This document shows, piece after piece, positions 2,431 to 12,091 of a stretch of 64,000 nucleotides of DNA (position 1 is the first letter of the stretch; the number at the start of each line of letters is the position of its first letter). Below the pieces are notes generated by a model. The model was not told the origin of the DNA. It worked only from the letters and a program-made list of their open reading frames with translations, and searched no databases. The position numbers and the translations under genes are program-made. Source of the stretch: a virus (taxonomy: Duplodnaviria; Caudoviricetes); the IMG/VR virus record IMGVR_UViG_3300020411_000002; one strand, 5' to 3'.

Positions 2431-5400
2431 TTATACCTTTCGATTGACTGTATCTACGTTGTGTACTAGGAAAGGATTTCTACCAACGTAGTAAGAATCA
2501 CTTTCTTCAACGTCTATACAGACTACATCAATCGGATCATCTACGCGTGTTAAAGAACCTACAAGAACTTCTTCTTTGTCTCCATAACAAGAAAGAAGTA
2601 CATCGCCTACTTTCATATCCCTAACGTCCATCCACTGCCAAGTGTCATCGCGTTTAACAAAGATAAGGTGTTCTTGGGTTATTTCAACATCACCATTAAT
2701 AATCCAATATTCTCTAAACCAATCGTGTTTGATTGCTCGAATTGTACTAACTACAGGATAACGTCCGTTTATGTCTTTAGTAGTCCAGTCTTCCCAACCA
2801 TCTACGTTTTCATCAATCATATTAGGAATGAATTCACTAACGAGTCGGTCACCTACTTTAAGTCTTTCTGCGTTAATAGATTTTCCATCTTCTAGCACGA
2901 CCATCGTACCAAAAGATATACAACCACCACCGCCACCACCTGAATAAACTTGTGCTTTCTGCTGTAAGCTTACTTCAATAGGTGCAGACTTTTGTACGTT
3001 ACCCAAGTCGTCTTTAACAAATATCTCTACTGTTAAATTGGCAATTCCTGCTAAACTTGAATTAGAAACCGCACGTTCAAACTGAATACTCATGCACTGA
3101 TTATTAGCGCCGTAGTTTGAAACACTATTAGGTACATCGGCTGTTTCTTTAGATTCATCAAAAGCACAATACGGCTTTATCGATACGCGAGACCCTGGGA
3201 TTGAATTGTTAACTGTAACAACGTTCCACTTATAGGTGTAAGAACGCGCTGGGTCAAATTCAAATTCCGCTAATAGTCTGCTAGTCCAATTAGTGCCTGC
3301 TGCTTTGTCGTCAACTCCACTTGTAGCGCTGTCCGCAGTTTTAGACATAGTAAAGCAAGCTACCTTTCCATTGTCTTGTGCATACTGAGGAACACCGTCA
3401 CCTAAGTCACCGTCAGTGCCCCAATCCATATCCAACTTATTAGAGTTAATCTTGAAAGCTAGAATAGTTTCAGGGTGTGCGTACTTAGTTGCAGTAACTT
3501 TTGCAGTACCAGTACTTCTAAGAGTTCCAGTATATACAATGTTCATATCTCCTTGAACAGGGGCAGATGATTCTACAATAGTAGCAATGCCTTCATCTTG
3601 AATGATAGCACCAACGCTTGCATCGTAGATGATAACTTTAAACTGTTCATTCGGGTCACGTTCACTATCAGCAAAAGTATTAATGCTAATAGTACCACTG
3701 CCTGCACCTGCTGGAATAGTAAGACTTCCAGATTTAGATTGATAATCTGCATTTGATGTAGGAGTAGACGGGCTTCCATCTGAACCAGTATTAGCTAGCG
3801 TAAAGTTTGTCATACGCTTAACACCGCTCTGGTTTTCGAAAGAACTAGACCCAGACAAGTCTTCAAACAGATAGCTGTCACCTGCTTTGTCTTTTATTTG
3901 CTGAACAGAAACACTACGCGCACCAGACGGGCTAGATACGGTAGAGTCAGACGCTGGAATATCTACCAAGCTCTTAATGTTGAAAGAGTTGATAAGGTCT
4001 TTAGCGTGAGCGTTAGCAAATCTGTAGTAGTTGCCTGCGGTACTTATATCAAATGCTGCTGCACTGATCACTACCATAGGCTTAGAACCTTTAGCTGCTC
4101 TCGCTACTGCAACACCAAACGCTGTACCTTGTTCAAGATTAAACATCTTGTTCAAGAAGTGATTAGAAGTATCTACTCCTGCGTTTTCTTTAGCGTGGTG
4201 TCTCCATTCTCCAAACTGGTCAGATACAATAATGTCATAGTTACCTACTACGTTTTTAGGTGAACTATAAGTTGCATCTTGGTACGAGTAGCTACCTTGC
4301 TTGACAGTTCCATGTGCATCAAACTCATTGACTACGTGAACATCAACCTGAATACCGTAAATGTTTGCCAGTGACTTAGTGAAGAAGTCCATAACAGTAG
4401 ACATTTGGTAAACGATTTCATATTCACGCTCATTTACTCTTGGATCAGGGTCATAGGGTGTAGAGTAAGATTGAATACGCTGGTGGGTTACTACCAATAG
4501 CTTTTTACCAGATAAAGAACCAAGACGGTGCTTTAACATATTAACAATCATCTTTTGGTAATCGTTAAGTTCTTCGAATGTAGAAACGCTACGGTCAACA
4601 TCCCTATTTGCATCAGTTCCATTGTATGCAGTAACTGTCTCTAGATAGTTTTCAACATCGTAAAGTCTGTGTGGGTCTGCTTCTAACATTAACGTATAGC
4701 CGTCAGTATCGTTAGAGTAAACAACTGTAGAAACATGATTACTATCTCTGAATAACGGATATGGATTAACTTCACCTGCTGCAACGGCTTCGCTGCTAGC
4801 AGTCATATCTTCCGTTCTATAGTTCAAAGACAAGTCTTCATTGATTGGATAGTTAAGACCTACTGTAAATTTAGCTGTAGAGCCTTCCGCTACTGTAATA
4901 CTATTAATAGCTATTTGAACATCAGGACAATTTGGAACTTCCTGATCATCAATCTCTACATCTAAGAGAGGAATATAACAGCCAACCCAATAAGCCCAAC
5001 TACTGTCAATAGGGCAATCGATACGTACACTGATTTCTCGCAAGTCATCGTAGTCCGCACTTTCTTCTAGTCTAAACCACTGTAAGAAAGTTGTACCTCT
5101 GCTTCGTTTAGCAGTTACTAACTTTCCTTTCTTGTTGAATACGCTAGCTGTATACGTAAAGTCTCCATAACCAGTAACTTTAATTGAAGCTACGCCGTTA
5201 TCGAGGTCGTTCATTAAGTAGTGGTCTTCTGTACTGTGGTGTCCAGCACTGTTTATGCCTGACTCTGGTACTTCACAAGGCCAACGATTCTCTTTGTACC
5301 CGCGAGTATTTGGATCATAAAGCATGTACTCTTGCGAAAGCACATCTGACCCGTACTCCCGTTGACTTGCCATTACTTTAACTACGATATCAGGAACAGC

Positions 5401-6534
5401 GTTTGCAAATCTCCAAGGGTCAAACACAATAGACAAAAGCCCATCTGTGTCTTTATTTCCCATAGTTGAAGCAATACGTTCACCGCCATGATAGACTTCA
5501 ACCCAGTCTGCATTTTCCCAAGTCTCGTAGTTAAGATGAAGAACATAAGGGCCTGTAGCAGGGTCAACTAGTCCAACTGTGTGAACGTACTCTACCCAAT
5601 ATTGTCCATCTGTGATTCTGTTCTCAAATGGAGTTACACGGCTATGAGCAGGTGCTGGAAACAAGCTAGTACCAATATACTCAGTAGTACGAATTTGTGC
5701 TAAATGTCTATTGTTGCCCGGCTCAAAGTCTTGAAGCGTAAGAAACGATTTAGGACCTATAGCAGAATACATCCATCTGCATTTGTCTTCACCACGAACA
5801 CGAATCATTACTCTATCTTCACCAGAACCGATTGCAGGGTCTAGACCGAACTCTAGTTTTCCTCTACCAGTAACTCTGCCGCATGTGGAAGCAATTAAAG
5901 CACCAAGATAATATACGTCAATAGAGATACCTTGTTCGTGGTAGCAAGCGTAAAGAATTTCAAAGATACCACCTCTATCACCTAACTCATAAATAGTTTC
6001 AGTTATTGCACTACCATTAGAGAAAGTATGCGTAGACAGGTAACTAGGATTCTCGTAACTTCCTCTACCAAGAAAAGAGTTAGTGCCCGGATTAGTATAA
6101 GTTTCTTTTGTGTTTTCAATTCCGGGTCTGTTAATTACTTGACCTTCATAAGTACCATAAGCACGTTCTAGACCAAAGCCTGCTTGACCTGCATCTGGTA
6201 AGTCGTAACCTTCTGGATATCCACGTAGTATGTCAAATTCGTTTCCACCACTACCGCTACCATCACCAGAACCTGCTTCTGTAATAGGAATAGAGTTAGA
6301 ACAAGTAAGAGAAGTAAGCATAGCTAGGTTAGCACAAGGGTCATCTAGCACATCGTCAAAAGTACAGTCCACCTGCATCCAAGTGTTGTTTCCGCTATCT
6401 CTTACTTGCGTTTGGTCTGGATAGAAACGAATCCACGTACTATTAAAGCCGTCGCGAAAATAGAACTCGCTGCTGCATTGGTCGAGCCAACCGTTATCTT
6501 GTGCATTACGAACTGTTAGTCTTGTAGTTGTCAT
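2431..6534 (-). CDS. 1367-aa multidomain tail fibre/adhesin: tandem beta-sandwich repeats, interrupted Calx-beta domain, C-terminal Hint domain
   Basis: Calx-beta halves INSITVAEGSTAKFTVGLNYP...RTEDMTA and ADYQSKSGSLTIPAGAGSGTISINTFADSERDPNEQFKV. C-terminus GGGGGG-CISFGTMV...ITQEH...IDVEESDSYY...LVHN-VDTVNRKV has Hint blocks A, B, F and G. Confidence 0.8.
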   Translation of the reverse strand: MTTTRLTVRNAQDNGWLDQCSSEFYFRDGFNSTWIRFYPDQTQVRDSGNNTWMQVDCTFDDVLDDPCANLAMLTSLTCSNSIPITEAGSGDGSGSGGNEFDILRGYPEGYDLPDAGQAGFGLERAYGTYEGQVINRPGIENTKETYTNPGTNSFLGRGSYENPSYLSTHTFSNGSAITETIYELGDRGGIFEILYACYHEQGISIDVYYLGALIASTCGRVTGRGKLEFGLDPAIGSGEDRVMIRVRGEDKCRWMYSAIGPKSFLTLQDFEPGNNRHLAQIRTTEYIGTSLFPAPAHSRVTPFENRITDGQYWVEYVHTVGLVDPATGPYVLHLNYETWENADWVEVYHGGERIASTMGNKDTDGLLSIVFDPWRFANAVPDIVVKVMASQREYGSDVLSQEYMLYDPNTRGYKENRWPCEVPESGINSAGHHSTEDHYLMNDLDNGVASIKVTGYGDFTYTASVFNKKGKLVTAKRSRGTTFLQWFRLEESADYDDLREISVRIDCPIDSSWAYWVGCYIPLLDVEIDDQEVPNCPDVQIAINSITVAEGSTAKFTVGLNYPINEDLSLNYRTEDMTASSEAVAAGEVNPYPLFRDSNHVSTVVYSNDTDGYTLMLEADPHRLYDVENYLETVTAYNGTDANRDVDRSVSTFEELNDYQKMIVNMLKHRLGSLSGKKLLVVTHQRIQSYSTPYDPDPRVNEREYEIVYQMSTVMDFFTKSLANIYGIQVDVHVVNEFDAHGTVKQGSYSYQDATYSSPKNVVGNYDIIVSDQFGEWRHHAKENAGVDTSNHFLNKMFNLEQGTAFGVAVARAAKGSKPMVVISAAAFDISTAGNYYRFANAHAKDLINSFNIKSLVDIPASDSTVSSPSGARSVSVQQIKDKAGDSYLFEDLSGSSSFENQSGVKRMTNFTLANTGSDGSPSTPTSNADYQSKSGSLTIPAGAGSGTISINTFADSERDPNEQFKVIIYDASVGAIIQDEGIATIVESSAPVQGDMNIVYTGTLRSTGTAKVTATKYAHPETILAFKINSNKLDMDWGTDGDLGDGVPQYAQDNGKVACFTMSKTADSATSGVDDKAAGTNWTSRLLAEFEFDPARSYTYKWNVVTVNNSIPGSRVSIKPYCAFDESKETADVPNSVSNYGANNQCMSIQFERAVSNSSLAGIANLTVEIFVKDDLGNVQKSAPIEVSLQQKAQVYSGGGGGGCISFGTMVVLEDGKSINAERLKVGDRLVSEFIPNMIDENVDGWEDWTTKDINGRYPVVSTIRAIKHDWFREYWIINGDVEITQEHLIFVKRDDTWQWMDVRDMKVGDVLLSCYGDKEEVLVGSLTRVDDPIDVVCIDVEESDSYYVGRNPFLVHNVDTVNRKV

Positions 6535-6543
6535 AGCACTACC

Positions 6544-7038
6544 TTAGCGAGGTTTAATCCATAAAGCACCAGCACCAACAGGACCTGGGTCTTCTGTAGT
6601 TATATAGATACTTACTTTACCATCTAATCCATGTTCGCCTTGAGGTCCAGTAGCACCAATAGGTCCCTGCTCCCCTTGCTTTCCTTGCGCACCACGAACA
6701 CCACGTTCTCCAACTGGGCCACGAGGACCTCTACATCCACGTTCACCACGCAATCCATTTTCACCAAGAAGTCCATTAATACCAGCGTTACCAGAAACAC
6801 CTTGAGGCCCTTCTTTACCAGTACCAACATCACTTTGAGTCATAAAGTTATTGATACGTAGAACAGGATAGCCTGGGATGCTTAGCGTAAGAGTACCAGA
6901 CGTATTATCGTAGTAACCTTCTAACGTGTCTGCTACTTCATCATCTGTTACAATAGACAAACCTCTACCAGAAGATTCTACATTACCTACAGTAGAACCA
7001 CCACTAATCATGTTCAAGTTAGCTTTTGTAATAGCCAT
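6544..7038 (-). CDS. Collagen-like fibre chain C (about 22 Gly-X-Y triplets)
   Basis: Uninterrupted GXY run GKEGPQ...GLDGK; N- and C-flanking domains are paralogous to 7051..7686 and 8150..9661. Confidence 0.85.
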   Translation of the reverse strand: MAITKANLNMISGGSTVGNVESSGRGLSIVTDDEVADTLEGYYDNTSGTLTLSIPGYPVLRINNFMTQSDVGTGKEGPQGVSGNAGINGLLGENGLRGERGCRGPRGPVGERGVRGAQGKQGEQGPIGATGPQGEHGLDGKVSIYITTEDPGPVGAGALWIKPR

Positions 7039-7050
7039 AATAAGTCTCTC

Positions 7051-7686
7051 TTAAAATTGGTCTAAGTCATCATCGTACTGACCGATATCTGGATTTACCC
7101 AAATAGAGCCAGGTCCTATGCTAGAGCCAGGGTCTGTACTACTAATAACTATGTTGATGTTTCCAGCAGGGCCTTGCTCTCCACGTGGGCCAGTAGGACC
7201 TGTAGCACCAGTAGGTCCAGTTGGGCCTACATCACCACGCTCACCTTTCTTTCCTTGCAGTCCACGTGGGCCCATAGGTCCAGCACATCCAGCAGGACCT
7301 GGAAGTCCAACTTGTCCATCACGACCATTCTGTCCATCTTCACCACGAGGGCCTGTAGGTCCAATAGGTCCAATACAGCCTTCGTCACCAACTTCTCCAT
7401 CTTTACCATCGCGTCCATCACGACCATCTTCGCCAGCTTCTCCTTGAGGACCTTGCTGACCCTGAGGAATGCTATCGAATGTAGGAAAGCCAGTAATAGC
7501 AATCTCATTACCGCTAGCAAATGTTAGAGTAAGAATGCCGCTTCCTTGGTCATAAAATCCAGCTTCGATTTCGCTGGTGGTGTCAACTGCTTCGCTAGAC
7601 GTAGCAAGCTTTCCGTTTTTGACAACTACACTACTGCCTTCGTCACCTGATGACCGTACCATAGTTACAGGAATTTTTGTAAGCAT
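7051..7686 (-). CDS. Collagen-like fibre chain B (about 33 Gly-X-Y triplets)
   Basis: Uninterrupted GXY run GQQGPQ...GPAGNI; same flanking motifs as the other two chains. Confidence 0.85.
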   Translation of the reverse strand: MLTKIPVTMVRSSGDEGSSVVVKNGKLATSSEAVDTTSEIEAGFYDQGSGILTLTFASGNEIAITGFPTFDSIPQGQQGPQGEAGEDGRDGRDGKDGEVGDEGCIGPIGPTGPRGEDGQNGRDGQVGLPGPAGCAGPMGPRGLQGKKGERGDVGPTGPTGATGPTGPRGEQGPAGNINIVISSTDPGSSIGPGSIWVNPDIGQYDDDLDQF

Positions 7687-7688
7687 AA

Positions 7689-8150
7689 TTAAACCCTGTT
7701 ATGTACTAAAATGCCATTTAGAAAATATGTATCACACATATCAACCTTTAGCTCGAATGTTTGTACACTAACTTCTATAAAAGAAATTGTCTCTACTTGA
7801 AATTGCGTAGAGTGTCCAAACATAACATCACCTTTTTGAATTTGTGGAGGCTTTTTCCATTCCCAAAAATCATTACGCTTGATTAAAATGGGTTGGTCGG
7901 CTACAAAGTGCATCAAGTTTATTTTATAGTATCCACTACGTATAAATATTTCGCGGTCTATAACAGTGCCTTCAATAACTTTTCCTTGAACGTCTTTTGT
8001 AGCCCATTCCATAGCGAACTCTTGATTACCAAATCTAGAACTAGGCATAGCACCTATTCTTAATGCAGTAATCTGATCGCCTACGAATACATCTTGTGTA
8101 TTCTTACTTTTAAGAGTATCTGTTCCTGTAGTAATCCTTTGCTTAATCAT
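7689..8150 (-). CDS. Stand-alone, catalytically degenerate Hint-domain protein
   Basis: Aligns by eye along its whole length with the Hint domain of 8150..9661 (VFVGDQI, YYKIN, PILIKRNDFWEW, IQKGD, DTYFLNGILVHN). No Cys1; the block-B His is replaced by Gln. TAATG stop/start overlap with the upstream gene. Confidence 0.8.
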   Translation of the reverse strand: MIKQRITTGTDTLKSKNTQDVFVGDQITALRIGAMPSSRFGNQEFAMEWATKDVQGKVIEGTVIDREIFIRSGYYKINLMHFVADQPILIKRNDFWEWKKPPQIQKGDVMFGHSTQFQVETISFIEVSVQTFELKVDMCDTYFLNGILVHNRV

Positions 8151-9661
8151 TAGTGCTTAACCGTTTGTGTTGTGTTATGGACAACAATAGGCTCATGTCC
8201 GGCAAAGTAGTTATCGTATGGTTCAACGTCTAGTACGACAACATTGAGATTTTCTTTAACTTGATCGATAGACTTGATTTCAATAACTCCATCTGTACCT
8301 TTAAGAAAGTCACCAACTTTAATGTCAGTCGCATCATACCAACCCCACTGCTGATTCTTTCTAACTAGAACAGGGTGGTCTTGGGTAATACATACGTCAT
8401 TGTTAATCTTCCAATACTGAGTGTAGCTAGCATTGTAAGCAACTCGCGCTGTAGTAGGTACAATCTTCGGATTCTTGAACTCTGTAGTCTTCCAATCTTT
8501 CCAATTTCTTTCGTCTTCGTCTAGCATTCCTGTCGAAGTAAAGGACTGTAGAGTATCGCCTACTTTAACATATTTAGCTCGTTTAGTACTTCCATCCCAC
8601 ATAAGAATTGGAGTATCTTCGTGTACACAACCACCGCCACCAACTATGATAGGACCTCCAGGCTCAGTCTCTTCACTATTATCTCTGCTGTTGTAACCTG
8701 AGAAAGAGAAGCGAATATTCTTGATAGACAAACGTTTATTGTTATCGCCTCTATCTGTAATAACGAGTTCCATCTTACCAGAAAAGCTATAGCTTTGTTG
8801 AGGTTGAATAGTACGTAATGCAGCAATCTTTAGTGAACGTGACGTAGTAGAACCGTCAATAGAAATTCCAGCTTCACGCATACTGTTATCAGTATCGACC
8901 CACTTGTAACTGAAAGGACCTATTCCACCTTCAAAGTTCGTTAATGAAAGAATAGCGTTACCGCCGTAAGAATCATCAGTAACGTGAGCTAGTCTAACAC
9001 TAACATCTGTTACTTGTCCTGACATTGGATCAGCTTCTACTATCGGTGAGGGAAGAGAAGTGCCACTAGGTCGCGCCCAAAGAAAGTAGTTTGAGTCTGG
9101 TGCGTTCTCTCCATAGTATACTGTTTCCGCTGGTTTGATTCCTTGTATACCACGTTCACCAACTATACAGCTAGGCCCAGCAGGTCCAACAGGTCCCATG
9201 TTACCAACGTCACCATCTTCACCAGTGTCTCCACGCAATCCAATAGGACCGGGACACCCCATATATCCAGTAACACCAGTTTCACCATCATTACCATCTA
9301 GACCTTTATTGCCAGCTTCACCAGTAGGTCCAATCGGTCCTTCGCATCCAGTCTTTCCTTTCTTACCATCACGACCAATTCTACCATCACGACCTTTCTT
9401 GCCAGCAGGGCCTTTATCTCCACGAGGACCTTCACCCATCTGACCGAGCGTTAAGAATCCAGACACCTCTACAACTTCACCATTATGTCTGACAAAGTTG
9501 AGTGTGCCTGTTCTCTTGTTGAATCCGATTTGTGCAATAGCTCTTTCGCTAACAGGTTGTTCTGAACTGTATGCTAAACTTTTTAGGGAATCAGTCTTTA
9601 AACTAGTTCCCTCTTTATTCTTGCTAGGTACAAGACTTTTAATGTTAGCTTCTTGTGCCAT
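8150..9661 (-). CDS. Collagen-like fibre chain A with a beta-sandwich domain and a C-terminal Hint domain
   Basis: About 33 GXY triplets, then a globular domain, then GGGG-CVHEDTPI...ITQDHP...LDVEPYDNYF...VVHN-TTQTVKH. Confidence 0.85.
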   Translation of the reverse strand: MAQEANIKSLVPSKNKEGTSLKTDSLKSLAYSSEQPVSERAIAQIGFNKRTGTLNFVRHNGEVVEVSGFLTLGQMGEGPRGDKGPAGKKGRDGRIGRDGKKGKTGCEGPIGPTGEAGNKGLDGNDGETGVTGYMGCPGPIGLRGDTGEDGDVGNMGPVGPAGPSCIVGERGIQGIKPAETVYYGENAPDSNYFLWARPSGTSLPSPIVEADPMSGQVTDVSVRLAHVTDDSYGGNAILSLTNFEGGIGPFSYKWVDTDNSMREAGISIDGSTTSRSLKIAALRTIQPQQSYSFSGKMELVITDRGDNNKRLSIKNIRFSFSGYNSRDNSEETEPGGPIIVGGGGCVHEDTPILMWDGSTKRAKYVKVGDTLQSFTSTGMLDEDERNWKDWKTTEFKNPKIVPTTARVAYNASYTQYWKINNDVCITQDHPVLVRKNQQWGWYDATDIKVGDFLKGTDGVIEIKSIDQVKENLNVVVLDVEPYDNYFAGHEPIVVHNTTQTVKH

Positions 9662-9664
9662 ACG

Positions 9665-12091
9665 TTACCCCAAATTAGGCGATACATCGACTACCAAGTT
9701 AATCGTTAGTGCTGAACCATAATCACTTACGCGACCGTTACGTACACGCATTTTAGCAACTATCTCAATAGCACCAGTTGGGTTATTAGCTTTCAATACG
9801 TTCCAGCTTTGAGTAATTGATTTATCTGCATAGGCATACGTGCCTTGCTGTTCTGGATTAGTTACATTGAAACCACTGCTACCAGTACCTTTAATGTTTC
9901 TACCATATTCAGGTTCGTTAAGGCTGTGCGTTCTAAATCCAAGAACAAATTCAATGTTCTCTAATCCATTAGCTGACGTAAAGCCGGGACCTAGTCTAGC
10001 ATTGAAGTCTGCTGTAGCTTTAACAATAACATCACCTTTAAAGTTCACACGTTGAGTATAGATAATCTCTTCCGCGTTAACTATTCTGTGTTGGTTATTG
10101 AACACAACAGGTTTGTCTTTTGCTATTTGCTGACTTAGTTTAGATTCAATCGTGTACTCAGGAAAAGTACCAGAAACTTTAATACCCGTTCCACCTATCA
10201 TATTGAATCGAGGAACTGGAATACGTAAAGGTTCTAAGTTGTGACGTACAAGCTCAATACTCTTAGACGTTACTAACGCATCAGTAACAACACCTTGGAT
10301 ACTGCTATCAGGATTGCCTTGGCTTAGTACGTTTCTGAATATCTGAACTTCGATTTCTTGATTCGCATCAATGTCTCTGCGGAAAATCAAACGGTCATCT
10401 ACAATATCGTACAAGCTACGATTAGCGTGAAGACCTTGTTCAGAAACAAACACTAGACCCTTATCTTGGGGACTGAATGGTAGTTGAAGAACACGCGTCA
10501 GGTCTTTAGTGACATAGTTCTGAGTGTGAACATGAGTTGCATACCCACGAACTTCTTGTGTAATGAACGCATTGATTTCTACAAGTAACCCTTGTGCAGG
10601 TGCAGTAGTGAAAACAATCTTTTGATTATCTTCATCGATAACGTAGTTGTTTATGCTCTGCAAGAAAGGGTCTACGTATACCAGACACTGACTAGAACTA
10701 GTTATCTTTTCTTCACCTACTACAGGGATATCGAATTCAGTTTGATTACCATCTGCAATGTATTCTGCATAACGAATATTTAGCAAAGCACCTGTACTTG
10801 GAGTAAGCGTAAACAAACGCGCATCAATTTGGGTTTCACTAGGTAAGTCTTCTGAGAATTCAATTGCGTTTTCTGTAATCTCAAAAGCTTCTCTGTGTTG
10901 TGTGACGCCGCCAAGTGCTACCATTGCATAGTTGTTATTCTTAGCATGGCTGTAGTAATGAATTTGGGCTTTCTGACTCTGTACTTGCGACAAATCTTTT
11001 TGATAGAGAACAAATGTACGAGAACCTGCTGCGTCCTCTGGCTCTGTTACATAAGCACTCATTTTTAATGTGCCGGGCGGGTGGTACAACGTACTACCAT
11101 TACCAGAAGCTTTTAGTGGAGGCACCCAACGTGGACTAGTAACCCCACGCTCTAATACATAGTTAGACGGTACTTCTTCGTTTAACCAACTTAATGACGT
11201 AGCGCCGTAGTTGCCTGAACGTGGATACCAGATTGAAATAACGCTGGTATCTGATAGCGCACTAAATCCAGTTCCTTTAGCAATGTATGCAATGTTATCA
11301 CCGTTCTGAGTAGCATCGAAGATACGAGTCTCACCAGCCCCAGGTCCTTGAATAACTTGCACTACAACTACATCGCCAGCTTGTACGTTACCAAGTTCGC
11401 TAGCATCAGGCTGTTTGAATTCCGTTTCGTCGTAAACGTTTTCGTATCCAACTTCACCGTTAAAGATTCTAGTATATCCAGAGAAGCCCCAATGTGCGCC
11501 TCCAGGTCCGAACTTCTGAGCAATGCCGGGTACTGCGTTTCCATCTAGCGACCATTCAAGTGTCTGTACACCAACTGCATTTGCAATAGCACTAACAGGG
11601 CTAGGTAAGTCTTCAACTGTAGGTACAGATGGGATAGAACCAAACTCAGATAACGTTACATCAATAGTGCCTGCTTCTACTTCGCTAATGTGCAGCATAG
11701 CTTCAATGCGAATTGATTCGGCAGACGACTTAACGTAAGGCTCAGAATAAACACAATGACCTAGCACTGTGTTGTCTTCTAATAAAACAACTAGCTCACC
11801 AATAGTGATAGAGCTAGTTGCGTTTGCATCAGGTATACCTTGTGGAATATCTAATGTGAATCTAACTGTATTTTCTGACAATACTTGTACGTAAGAAATG
11901 TTACCTGTATAGACAGTGTTGCTTACGAGGTTGTCTGGGATACCACCCTCTTGTTCGTAGAAGTCTTCAACGTCTGATACTTCTAAATCACCTAGCTTGA
12001 ATGCTTTAGGGGCGACACGAATGCCACCCGCATCTGCATTAAGAAGTGATTGACGACCTGCTTCTGTTAAGTGAATTATGTTTGGTGTCAT
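9665..12091 (-). CDS. Baseplate-anchored tail fibre/attachment protein (808 aa)
   Basis: N-terminal IHLTEAGRQSLLNA...FKLGD resembles tail-collar/fibre-attachment domains. Three internal repeats of the type DGxxTxF...LVxV...Q...Y.I....I.F...P..G..V.I. Confidence 0.6.
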   Translation of the reverse strand: MTPNIIHLTEAGRQSLLNADAGGIRVAPKAFKLGDLEVSDVEDFYEQEGGIPDNLVSNTVYTGNISYVQVLSENTVRFTLDIPQGIPDANATSSITIGELVVLLEDNTVLGHCVYSEPYVKSSAESIRIEAMLHISEVEAGTIDVTLSEFGSIPSVPTVEDLPSPVSAIANAVGVQTLEWSLDGNAVPGIAQKFGPGGAHWGFSGYTRIFNGEVGYENVYDETEFKQPDASELGNVQAGDVVVVQVIQGPGAGETRIFDATQNGDNIAYIAKGTGFSALSDTSVISIWYPRSGNYGATSLSWLNEEVPSNYVLERGVTSPRWVPPLKASGNGSTLYHPPGTLKMSAYVTEPEDAAGSRTFVLYQKDLSQVQSQKAQIHYYSHAKNNNYAMVALGGVTQHREAFEITENAIEFSEDLPSETQIDARLFTLTPSTGALLNIRYAEYIADGNQTEFDIPVVGEEKITSSSQCLVYVDPFLQSINNYVIDEDNQKIVFTTAPAQGLLVEINAFITQEVRGYATHVHTQNYVTKDLTRVLQLPFSPQDKGLVFVSEQGLHANRSLYDIVDDRLIFRRDIDANQEIEVQIFRNVLSQGNPDSSIQGVVTDALVTSKSIELVRHNLEPLRIPVPRFNMIGGTGIKVSGTFPEYTIESKLSQQIAKDKPVVFNNQHRIVNAEEIIYTQRVNFKGDVIVKATADFNARLGPGFTSANGLENIEFVLGFRTHSLNEPEYGRNIKGTGSSGFNVTNPEQQGTYAYADKSITQSWNVLKANNPTGAIEIVAKMRVRNGRVSDYGSALTINLVVDVSPNLG

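Follow-up and report, generated by a model that had tools for sequence, protein, structure and literature searches.

A free-standing, degenerate Hint domain gene conserved within the collagen-like fibre module of a marine jumbo phage clade

The locus described here lies in a 64,000-nucleotide stretch of DNA (the window) from a virus of the Caudoviricetes (IMG/VR record IMGVR_UViG_3300020411_000002), a marine jumbo phage. This phage groups with phage NCTB and with Erwinia and Dickeya jumbo phages, which a published study places together as the Lupandier group, describing NCTB as Trichodesmium-associated (PMC7412058). When the module was compared with GenBank phages by megablast, no match was found. 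On the minus strand, positions 2431-12091 hold a tight row of late genes (Table 1), within which no promoter-like or terminator-like site stands out. The row begins with a conserved 808-aa protein that has weak matches to tail-fibre N-terminal domains, followed by a collagen-like fibre protein ending in a Hint domain (chain A), a free-standing Hint gene that we call psi-Hint, two collagen-like fibres without a Hint (chains B and C), and a long adhesin-like protein that again ends in a Hint. All three chains match Pfam Collagen and many PHROG tail-fibre families; chain A also matches phrog_38766, a "virion structural protein" family (E 2e-68), and Calx-beta and PT-HINT matches were found on orthologues of the adhesin. 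Chains A, B, and C (6544-9661) are alike in their N-domain, in carrying a Cys at a comparable offset inside the collagen repeats, and in a D-P-G...W..P motif after the collagen, and it is possible that they form a heterotrimeric fibre.

Table 1. Features of the fibre module and of the psi-Hint gene (window coordinates).
Feature	Position	Strand	Basis
808-aa conserved fibre-module protein, 5' of chain A	9665..12091	(-)	phrog_21488, E 5e-192
Chain A, 503 aa: N-domain, collagen repeats, Ig-like domain, GGGG-Cys345, active-type Hint	8150..9661	(-)	Pfam Collagen and Intein_splicing
Hint of chain A, active type, spanning Cys345-Asn496; TQDH, block F Asp, and HN all present	8174..8629	(-)	Translation, alignment
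TAATG, chain A stop/psi-Hint start, one-base overlap	8148..8152	(-)	Sequence
psi-Hint, free-standing degenerate Hint gene, 153 aa	7689..8150	(-)	ORF, translation, homology, AF2 fold, nine intact orthologues
psi-Hint residues 83-86, VADQ, in the place of block B TxxH (Gln86 = His equivalent)	7893..7904	(-)	Alignments
psi-Hint Lys135, in the place of the block F Asp	7746..7748	(-)	Alignment
psi-Hint His150-Asn151 (block G), then only Arg-Val-stop	7698..7703	(-)	Translation, alignment
Chain B, 211-aa collagen-like fibre without Hint	7051..7686	(-)	Pfam Collagen, PHROG families
Acidic C-terminal tail of chain B, DIGQYDDDLDQF	7054..7089	(-)	Conservation
Chain C, 164-aa collagen-like fibre without Hint	6544..7038	(-)	Pfam Collagen, PHROG families
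Adhesin-like protein, 1367 aa, ending in GGGGGG-Cys1205 and an active-type Hint (2458-2922)	2431..6534	(-)	Translation, tblastn

At the 5′ end of psi-Hint, positions 8148-8152 read CATTA on the plus strand and TAATG on the coding strand, and a stop codon lies in the psi-Hint frame two codons 5′ of its ATG, making an N-extein impossible. The free Hint of NCTB starts with the identical one-base overlap with the preceding stop. At the 3′ end, chain B begins 2 nt beyond psi-Hint in the window and overlaps it by 10-11 nt in three other lineages. In BLASTP, psi-Hint residues 74-151 align with the C-terminal Hint of the upstream 503-aa protein (30% identity, E 6e-10), and in tblastn psi-Hint aligns with the Hint of the 1367-aa protein (2458-2922) at 27% identity over 150 aa (E 2e-10). 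When the three Hint-like stretches were used as tblastn queries, no Hint copies beyond these three were found in the window. The initial annotation had described a 153-aa ORF collinear with the upstream gene's Hint, with a start overlapping the upstream stop and with neither an N-extein nor Cys1; the BLASTP alignment, the coding-strand bases at the junction, and the in-frame upstream stop together with a Met in the Cys1 column bear out each part of that description. Contigs in marine metatranscriptome assemblies from three studies cover psi-Hint and bridge both gene junctions, with DNA carry-over a possible source.

The one-base stop/start overlap in the window and in NCTB could conceivably let programmed frameshifting or readthrough fuse psi-Hint to chain A, giving a tandem Hint. 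We give this next to no credence. The frame offset between chain A and psi-Hint varies by lineage (-1, +1, and 0), the conserved M-x-x-Q motif at the N-terminus of the psi family marks a start of its own, and in L016 two stops and 27 nt separate the two genes; a recoded fusion was excluded because of the variable offset and the two stops.

An AlphaFold2 (AF2) model of psi-Hint, built on a 53-row alignment, has a Hint fold (mean pLDDT 93.2, pTM 0.89). The top Foldseek match in the PDB was the bacterial intein-like (BIL) domain 2lwy (E 6e-7, TM 0.69/0.76), followed by BIL2 of Tetrahymena BUBL1, many mini-inteins, and the Hedgehog domain 1at0, with a Foldseek probability of 1.00 to BIL domains, inteins, and Hedgehog and TM scores of up to 0.76. 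Among predicted viral structures the best match was the NCTB orthologue (TM 0.93), and the next were the C-terminal Hints of the NCTB fibre and adhesin and those of other phage surface proteins. The nearest clusters in the ESM Atlas were all viral proteins of 226-668 aa with a terminal Hint, none of them a 150-aa protein. Sequence similarity to the neighbouring Hint (E 6e-10) agrees with the fold. Nearly all of the 170 library matches to psi-Hint are C-terminal Hints, and a profile of the psi family matches BUBL BIL2 at E 6e-4, BIL domains being the only solved proteins that it reached. Against Pfam PT-HINT (PF07591) psi-Hint scored 15.8 bits (E 0.018), below the gathering threshold of 27.7 bits; its sole match in Pfam, PHROGs, and NCBIfam was to the Hint part of a virion structural protein family.

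Hint domains are known as single-turnover modules that cleave or splice themselves inside larger proteins. By structure and sequence psi-Hint is a member of the Hint superfamily, and it has none of the functional marks of inteins, BIL/Hog domains, or split inteins. As an intein it would need a nucleophile (Cys/Ser/Thr) at position 1 after an N-extein, the block B Thr-x-x-His, the block F Asp, and a Cys, Ser, or Thr at position +1 of a C-extein; it has none of these, and its His-Asn is followed by Arg-Val and a stop. As a BIL or Hog autoprocessing domain it would not be encoded by a free-standing gene, begin with Met1, and lack the block B His. As a split intein it would not be, as it is, a complete Hint fold in a single chain without extein. 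BIL domains (Clostridium thermocellum 2lwy; Tetrahymena BUBL1 BIL2, 6tmm and 6y75) nevertheless come closest among solved structures, with E-values of 6e-7 to 4e-6, TM scores of 0.65-0.76, a similar size, and no endonuclease. They differ in being embedded in larger proteins and in relying for their activity on Cys1, on the block B His, and on an Asn at the C-terminus, whereas psi-Hint stands alone, has Met at position 1, and has neither the His nor the block F Asp. The Hedgehog autoprocessing domain (1at0) and mini-inteins have the same fold (TM 0.60-0.67), but psi-Hint lacks their cleavage and splicing residue set, the sterol-recognition part, the exteins, and the +1 nucleophile (Arg follows the Asn). 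On these comparisons psi-Hint resembles a pseudo-enzyme of the Hint superfamily.

Residue by residue, nine free (psi) and 12 active Hint sequences were aligned. Met1 falls in the Cys1 column across all nine free copies and the 12 active Hints, and G24-D25 lie as far from Met1 as they do from Cys1 in the two active Hints of the module. Cys1, the block B Thr and His, the block F Asp, and the terminal His-Asn are all kept in 12/12 active sequences. In the psi family, the block B His is present in 0/9 sequences and the block F position is occupied by K, K, K, K, E, E, L, R, and T; also lost, although invariant in the active Hints, are Cys1, the block B Thr, the Gly of the block A Asp-Gly, and the Asp-Glu of the insert. 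The terminal His-Asn is present in six of nine psi orthologues and is replaced by Tyr-Ala, Tyr-Ser, or Tyr-Thr in the other three. These alignments confirm two substitutions proposed in the initial annotation, TQDH to VADQ at residues 83-86 and LDV to LKV at K135, and they narrow a third claim, that VHN is kept: this holds for the window protein (residues 149-151) and fails for the family as a whole, His-Asn being lost in three of the nine orthologues. Several residues are invariant in the psi family only (M1, Q4, P36, G41, A50, G73, R92, and N145, of which G41 lies inside a three-residue insertion). The pattern is one of lost catalysis combined with new, family-specific constraint, not of plain decay. 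Having lost every part of the machinery for N-terminal cleavage (Cys1, block B Thr and His, block F Asp), psi-Hint is predicted to be incapable of forming a thioester or of cleaving, the loss being a fact at the level of residues and the chemistry a prediction from it. The free copies are also less acidic than the active Hints (pI 5.9-9.7 vs. 4.5-5.5). Furthermore, the NCTB protein (L001:9001-9462) and the orthologue P0025 have a Cys at residue 8 and contain four to five cysteines in all, compared with one in the window protein, where residue 8 is Thr.

Some self-processing could in principle persist, either as an Asn cyclization that removes the last two residues or through an N-terminal nucleophile (Thr8, or Cys8 in NCTB), and the His-Asn found in six of nine orthologues and the Cys at position 8 of NCTB and P0025 would suit this. 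We judge it very unlikely, given that three lineages have Tyr-Ala, Tyr-Ser, or Tyr-Thr in place of His-Asn, that position 8 is not conserved, that no member of the psi family has the block B His or the block F Asp, and that clipping two residues has no evident use.

Intact psi-Hint genes were found in nine lineages at <60% identity to one another (the window, L104, L011, NCTB, P0025, L012, L013, L014, and L016), with lengths of 152-157 aa and identities reaching down to 23-41%. Wherever a contig is long enough, the gene order is the same: a protein of 808-815 aa, a collagen-Hint fibre of 503-513 aa, the free Hint, collagen proteins of ~212 and ~160 aa, and a Hint-bearing protein of ~1380 aa. 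The slot of psi-Hint, between the collagen-Hint fibre (chain A) and the two Hint-less collagen fibres, is constant. The NCTB orthologue, BN7874_135 (LT598654), annotated as an "intein domain protein," is 153 aa long, 39-41% identical to psi-Hint, and encoded in the same slot; besides its Cys at position 8 it differs by a three-residue deletion near the N-terminus. For a wider survey of synteny the 808-aa protein served as anchor, chain B having retrieved only generic collagen repeats. This survey recovered a 232-kb contig (L104) with an intact psi-Hint and 19 loci of the Erwinia/Dickeya type in which the chain A Hint is present and the free copy absent. Because the Erwinia and Dickeya relatives build the same three collagen chains without psi-Hint, the basic fibre does not require it.

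The initial annotation had called free Hint genes of this kind unusual, and this is supported: in a library of 1.84 billion representatives, the psi family alone supplied genuine free-standing relatives, and the other match that was checked proved to be a truncated gene call. That match, in L019 (1198-1860), was rejected as a stand-alone 153-aa Hint when its frame was found to run on upstream, taking in a (Thr-Val-Asn)n repeat as well as a GGGGGC junction. Gene callers can split poly-Gly-Cys-Hint proteins at an internal Met of block A, as happened in L019. Other apparent stand-alone Hints of 145-160 aa also start inside block A, some of them with MADG, and L019 is the one that we examined. Literature searches covering NCTB, Hint domains in fibre proteins, and inactive Hint domains returned nothing on the psi-Hint gene, nor any account of an inactive Hint conserved as a gene of its own within phage fibre operons. 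The domain-level annotation in NCTB is the sole public trace of the family.

Variation within the window population points to selective maintenance. Across five haplotypes, amino-acid changes fall in six codons of psi-Hint and synonymous changes in 12, for a pN/pS of 0.13, compared with 0.09 for chain A, 0.07 for the chain A Hint, and 0.03-0.06 for other genes (0.03-0.10 for the neighbours overall). Compared with L104 and L011 (54-59% identity), dN is 0.33-0.42 and dS at least 1.8, so saturated that the resulting dN/dS of ~0.18 or less can be read as an upper bound only. Between lineages psi-Hint is 23-41% identical and is the fastest-evolving part of the module, the chain A Hint being 35-53%, the adhesin Hint 47-57%, and other genes 48-76% identical. 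This fast evolution fits relaxed constraint as well as it fits a changing partner surface. Nonsense variants were rare: in a 90% cluster of ~216 contigs there was one, a GAA-to-TAA change at psi-Hint codon 126 (L124:1876-1878) that would remove blocks F and G and reflects either a rare defective variant or a mistake in assembly.

A decaying duplicate heading for loss is a reading for which the high divergence, the highest in the module, and the stop at codon 126 in one metagenomic contig might speak. It is largely refuted, and we consider it highly improbable, in view of the pN/pS of 0.13, the family-specific invariant residues, the disruption in only 1 of ~216 contigs, and a frame that is intact and constant in length across nine lineages whose proteins differ at up to 77% of positions. 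The initial annotation had named a dN/dS near 1 and frequent disruption in relatives as the marks of decay; with a pN/pS of 0.13, a dN/dS of ~0.18 or less, and one disrupted gene in ~216, neither mark is present, and the comparison of synteny that it had proposed shows slot and length conserved across nine divergent lineages. Its suggestion that an intact frame combined with lost N-cleavage residues indicates a non-catalytic role likewise gains support from the synteny, the pN/pS, the single clade, and the invariants peculiar to the family. That psi-Hint is kept by purifying selection as a non-catalytic protein is well supported.

A maximum-likelihood tree of 28 Hints places the free copies in one group (support 100/99) on a long stem, and the branching inside this group is consistent with how the chain A Hints are related; the tree is rooted at its midpoint only and does not resolve the donor copy. 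The active Hints of chain A and the adhesin, with the wider poly-Gly-Cys-Hint family, are paralogues of psi-Hint that have the same insert between blocks A and B and predicted structures with TM scores of 0.87-0.91 to it; they differ in always being the C-terminal part of a protein of 226-1380 aa and in keeping the full residue set. The history that we propose is a single duplication of a self-processing C-terminal Hint from the fibre proteins of this phage group, in which a new start codon would have been set exactly at Hint position 1. Because the start sits there, the product would have the outline of an already excised Hint, such as chain A would release.

As to function, we favour, with a probability of roughly 0.55, the view that psi-Hint arose by that single Hint duplication and serves as a non-catalytic binding module of the fibre module, whether as a structural subunit or as an assembly accessory. 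We infer this role from the purifying selection, the family's own invariants, and the coupling on both sides within a collagen-like fibre operon. Under this proposal psi-Hint would be a real, expressed-type protein that processes nothing and acts by binding, its synthesis matched to that of chains A, B, and C through translational coupling on both sides, and its likeliest contacts would be the C-terminal ends of the fibres. The initial annotation had put forward an oligomerizing partner of the active Hints, a chaperone, and an inhibitor of cleavage as candidate roles. Tail-fibre assembly proteins of the lambda Tfa and T4 gp38 type are encoded just 3′ of fibre genes, and psi-Hint resembles them in layout only (a small protein directly after a fibre gene, with coupled translation); it differs in having a Hint fold and no sequence or family similarity to them. 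In Pfam, PHROGs, and NCBIfam no homology of psi-Hint to Tfa, gp38, or gp57 was found. An alternative is that psi-Hint has nothing to do with fibres and is, for example, a host-directed or anti-defence binder riding in the late operon. Its fast evolution and the lack of any match in Pfam, PHROGs, and NCBIfam that points to a role would be in keeping with this. We nonetheless regard it as distinctly unlikely, since in every lineage the gene keeps strictly to its slot between two fibre genes, where start and stop codons overlap or abut, and since psi-Hint derives from the fibre's own domain.

If psi-Hint is a binding module, its target would tell how collagen-like fibres mature or attach. One candidate docking peptide may be the acidic tail of chain B. 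The tail GQ[YF]DDDLDQF is invariant in the window, NCTB, L013, L014, and L016, reads YEDDTDQF in L104, and is absent from chain B of Erwinia phage Alexandra. This near-invariant tail accompanies the free Hint in every lineage that has it. The adhesin Hint has the same distribution as the tail, and the co-occurrence is a single evolutionary event and hence weak evidence. When psi-Hint was modelled in complex with residues 330-503 of chain A (its Hint) and residues 150-211 of chain B (its tail), the prediction scored 0.00 in two runs without controls, which has no bearing either way. The conservation of a catalytically dead free Hint in an abundant marine jumbo phage clade indicates that the fold has been reused beyond autoprocessing, and a small and stable Hint scaffold, able to bind yet not to cleave, could be derived from psi-Hint.

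The two active Hints of the module raise a further alternative. In a comparison covering the window, L001, L011, L013, L014, L016, and L104, the residue after the terminal His-Asn of chain A (window 8150-8179) was T, A, M, L, I, N, T, and T in eight lineages, and that of the adhesin (window 2431-2460) was V, A, N, and L. Since no nucleophile is conserved after the His-Asn, the selected reaction of the active Hints is likely to be cleavage or transfer and not splicing onto the short tail. psi-Hint might be a cofactor or regulator of the two active Hints, delaying or triggering cleavage at poly-Gly-Cys or steering the thioester to an acceptor for covalent joining of fibres. The poly-Gly-Cys junctions are conserved in all lineages, the second active Hint, that of the adhesin, co-occurs only in the clade with psi-Hint, and the closest solved relatives include the BIL domains of Tetrahymena BUBL1, a locus for a ubiquitin-like conjugation system. 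Set against this, the psi surface evolves fast and Hint domains are not known to act in such pairs, and we consider a regulatory role unlikely. A more specific form, which we hold to be a long shot, is that poly-Gly thioesters from the two active Hints are passed, with the help of psi-Hint or onto psi-Hint itself, to another virion protein, so joining the fibres covalently to the particle; if true, this would be a viral counterpart of BIL-mediated ubiquitin-like conjugation.

Finally, the active Hints of the window belong to a wider and barely studied phage habit, that of fibre and adhesin proteins ending in poly-Gly-Cys-Hint. The subtype is marked, in the two window copies (2458-2922 and 8174-8629) and in the library matches P0029-P0172, by the poly-Gly-Cys junction and by an insert with M-[IL]-D-E and two Trp residues. 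It recurs widely at the C-terminus of viral surface-type proteins, whose N-terminal parts include Laminin_G_3, fn3, DUF642, and PASTA domains.
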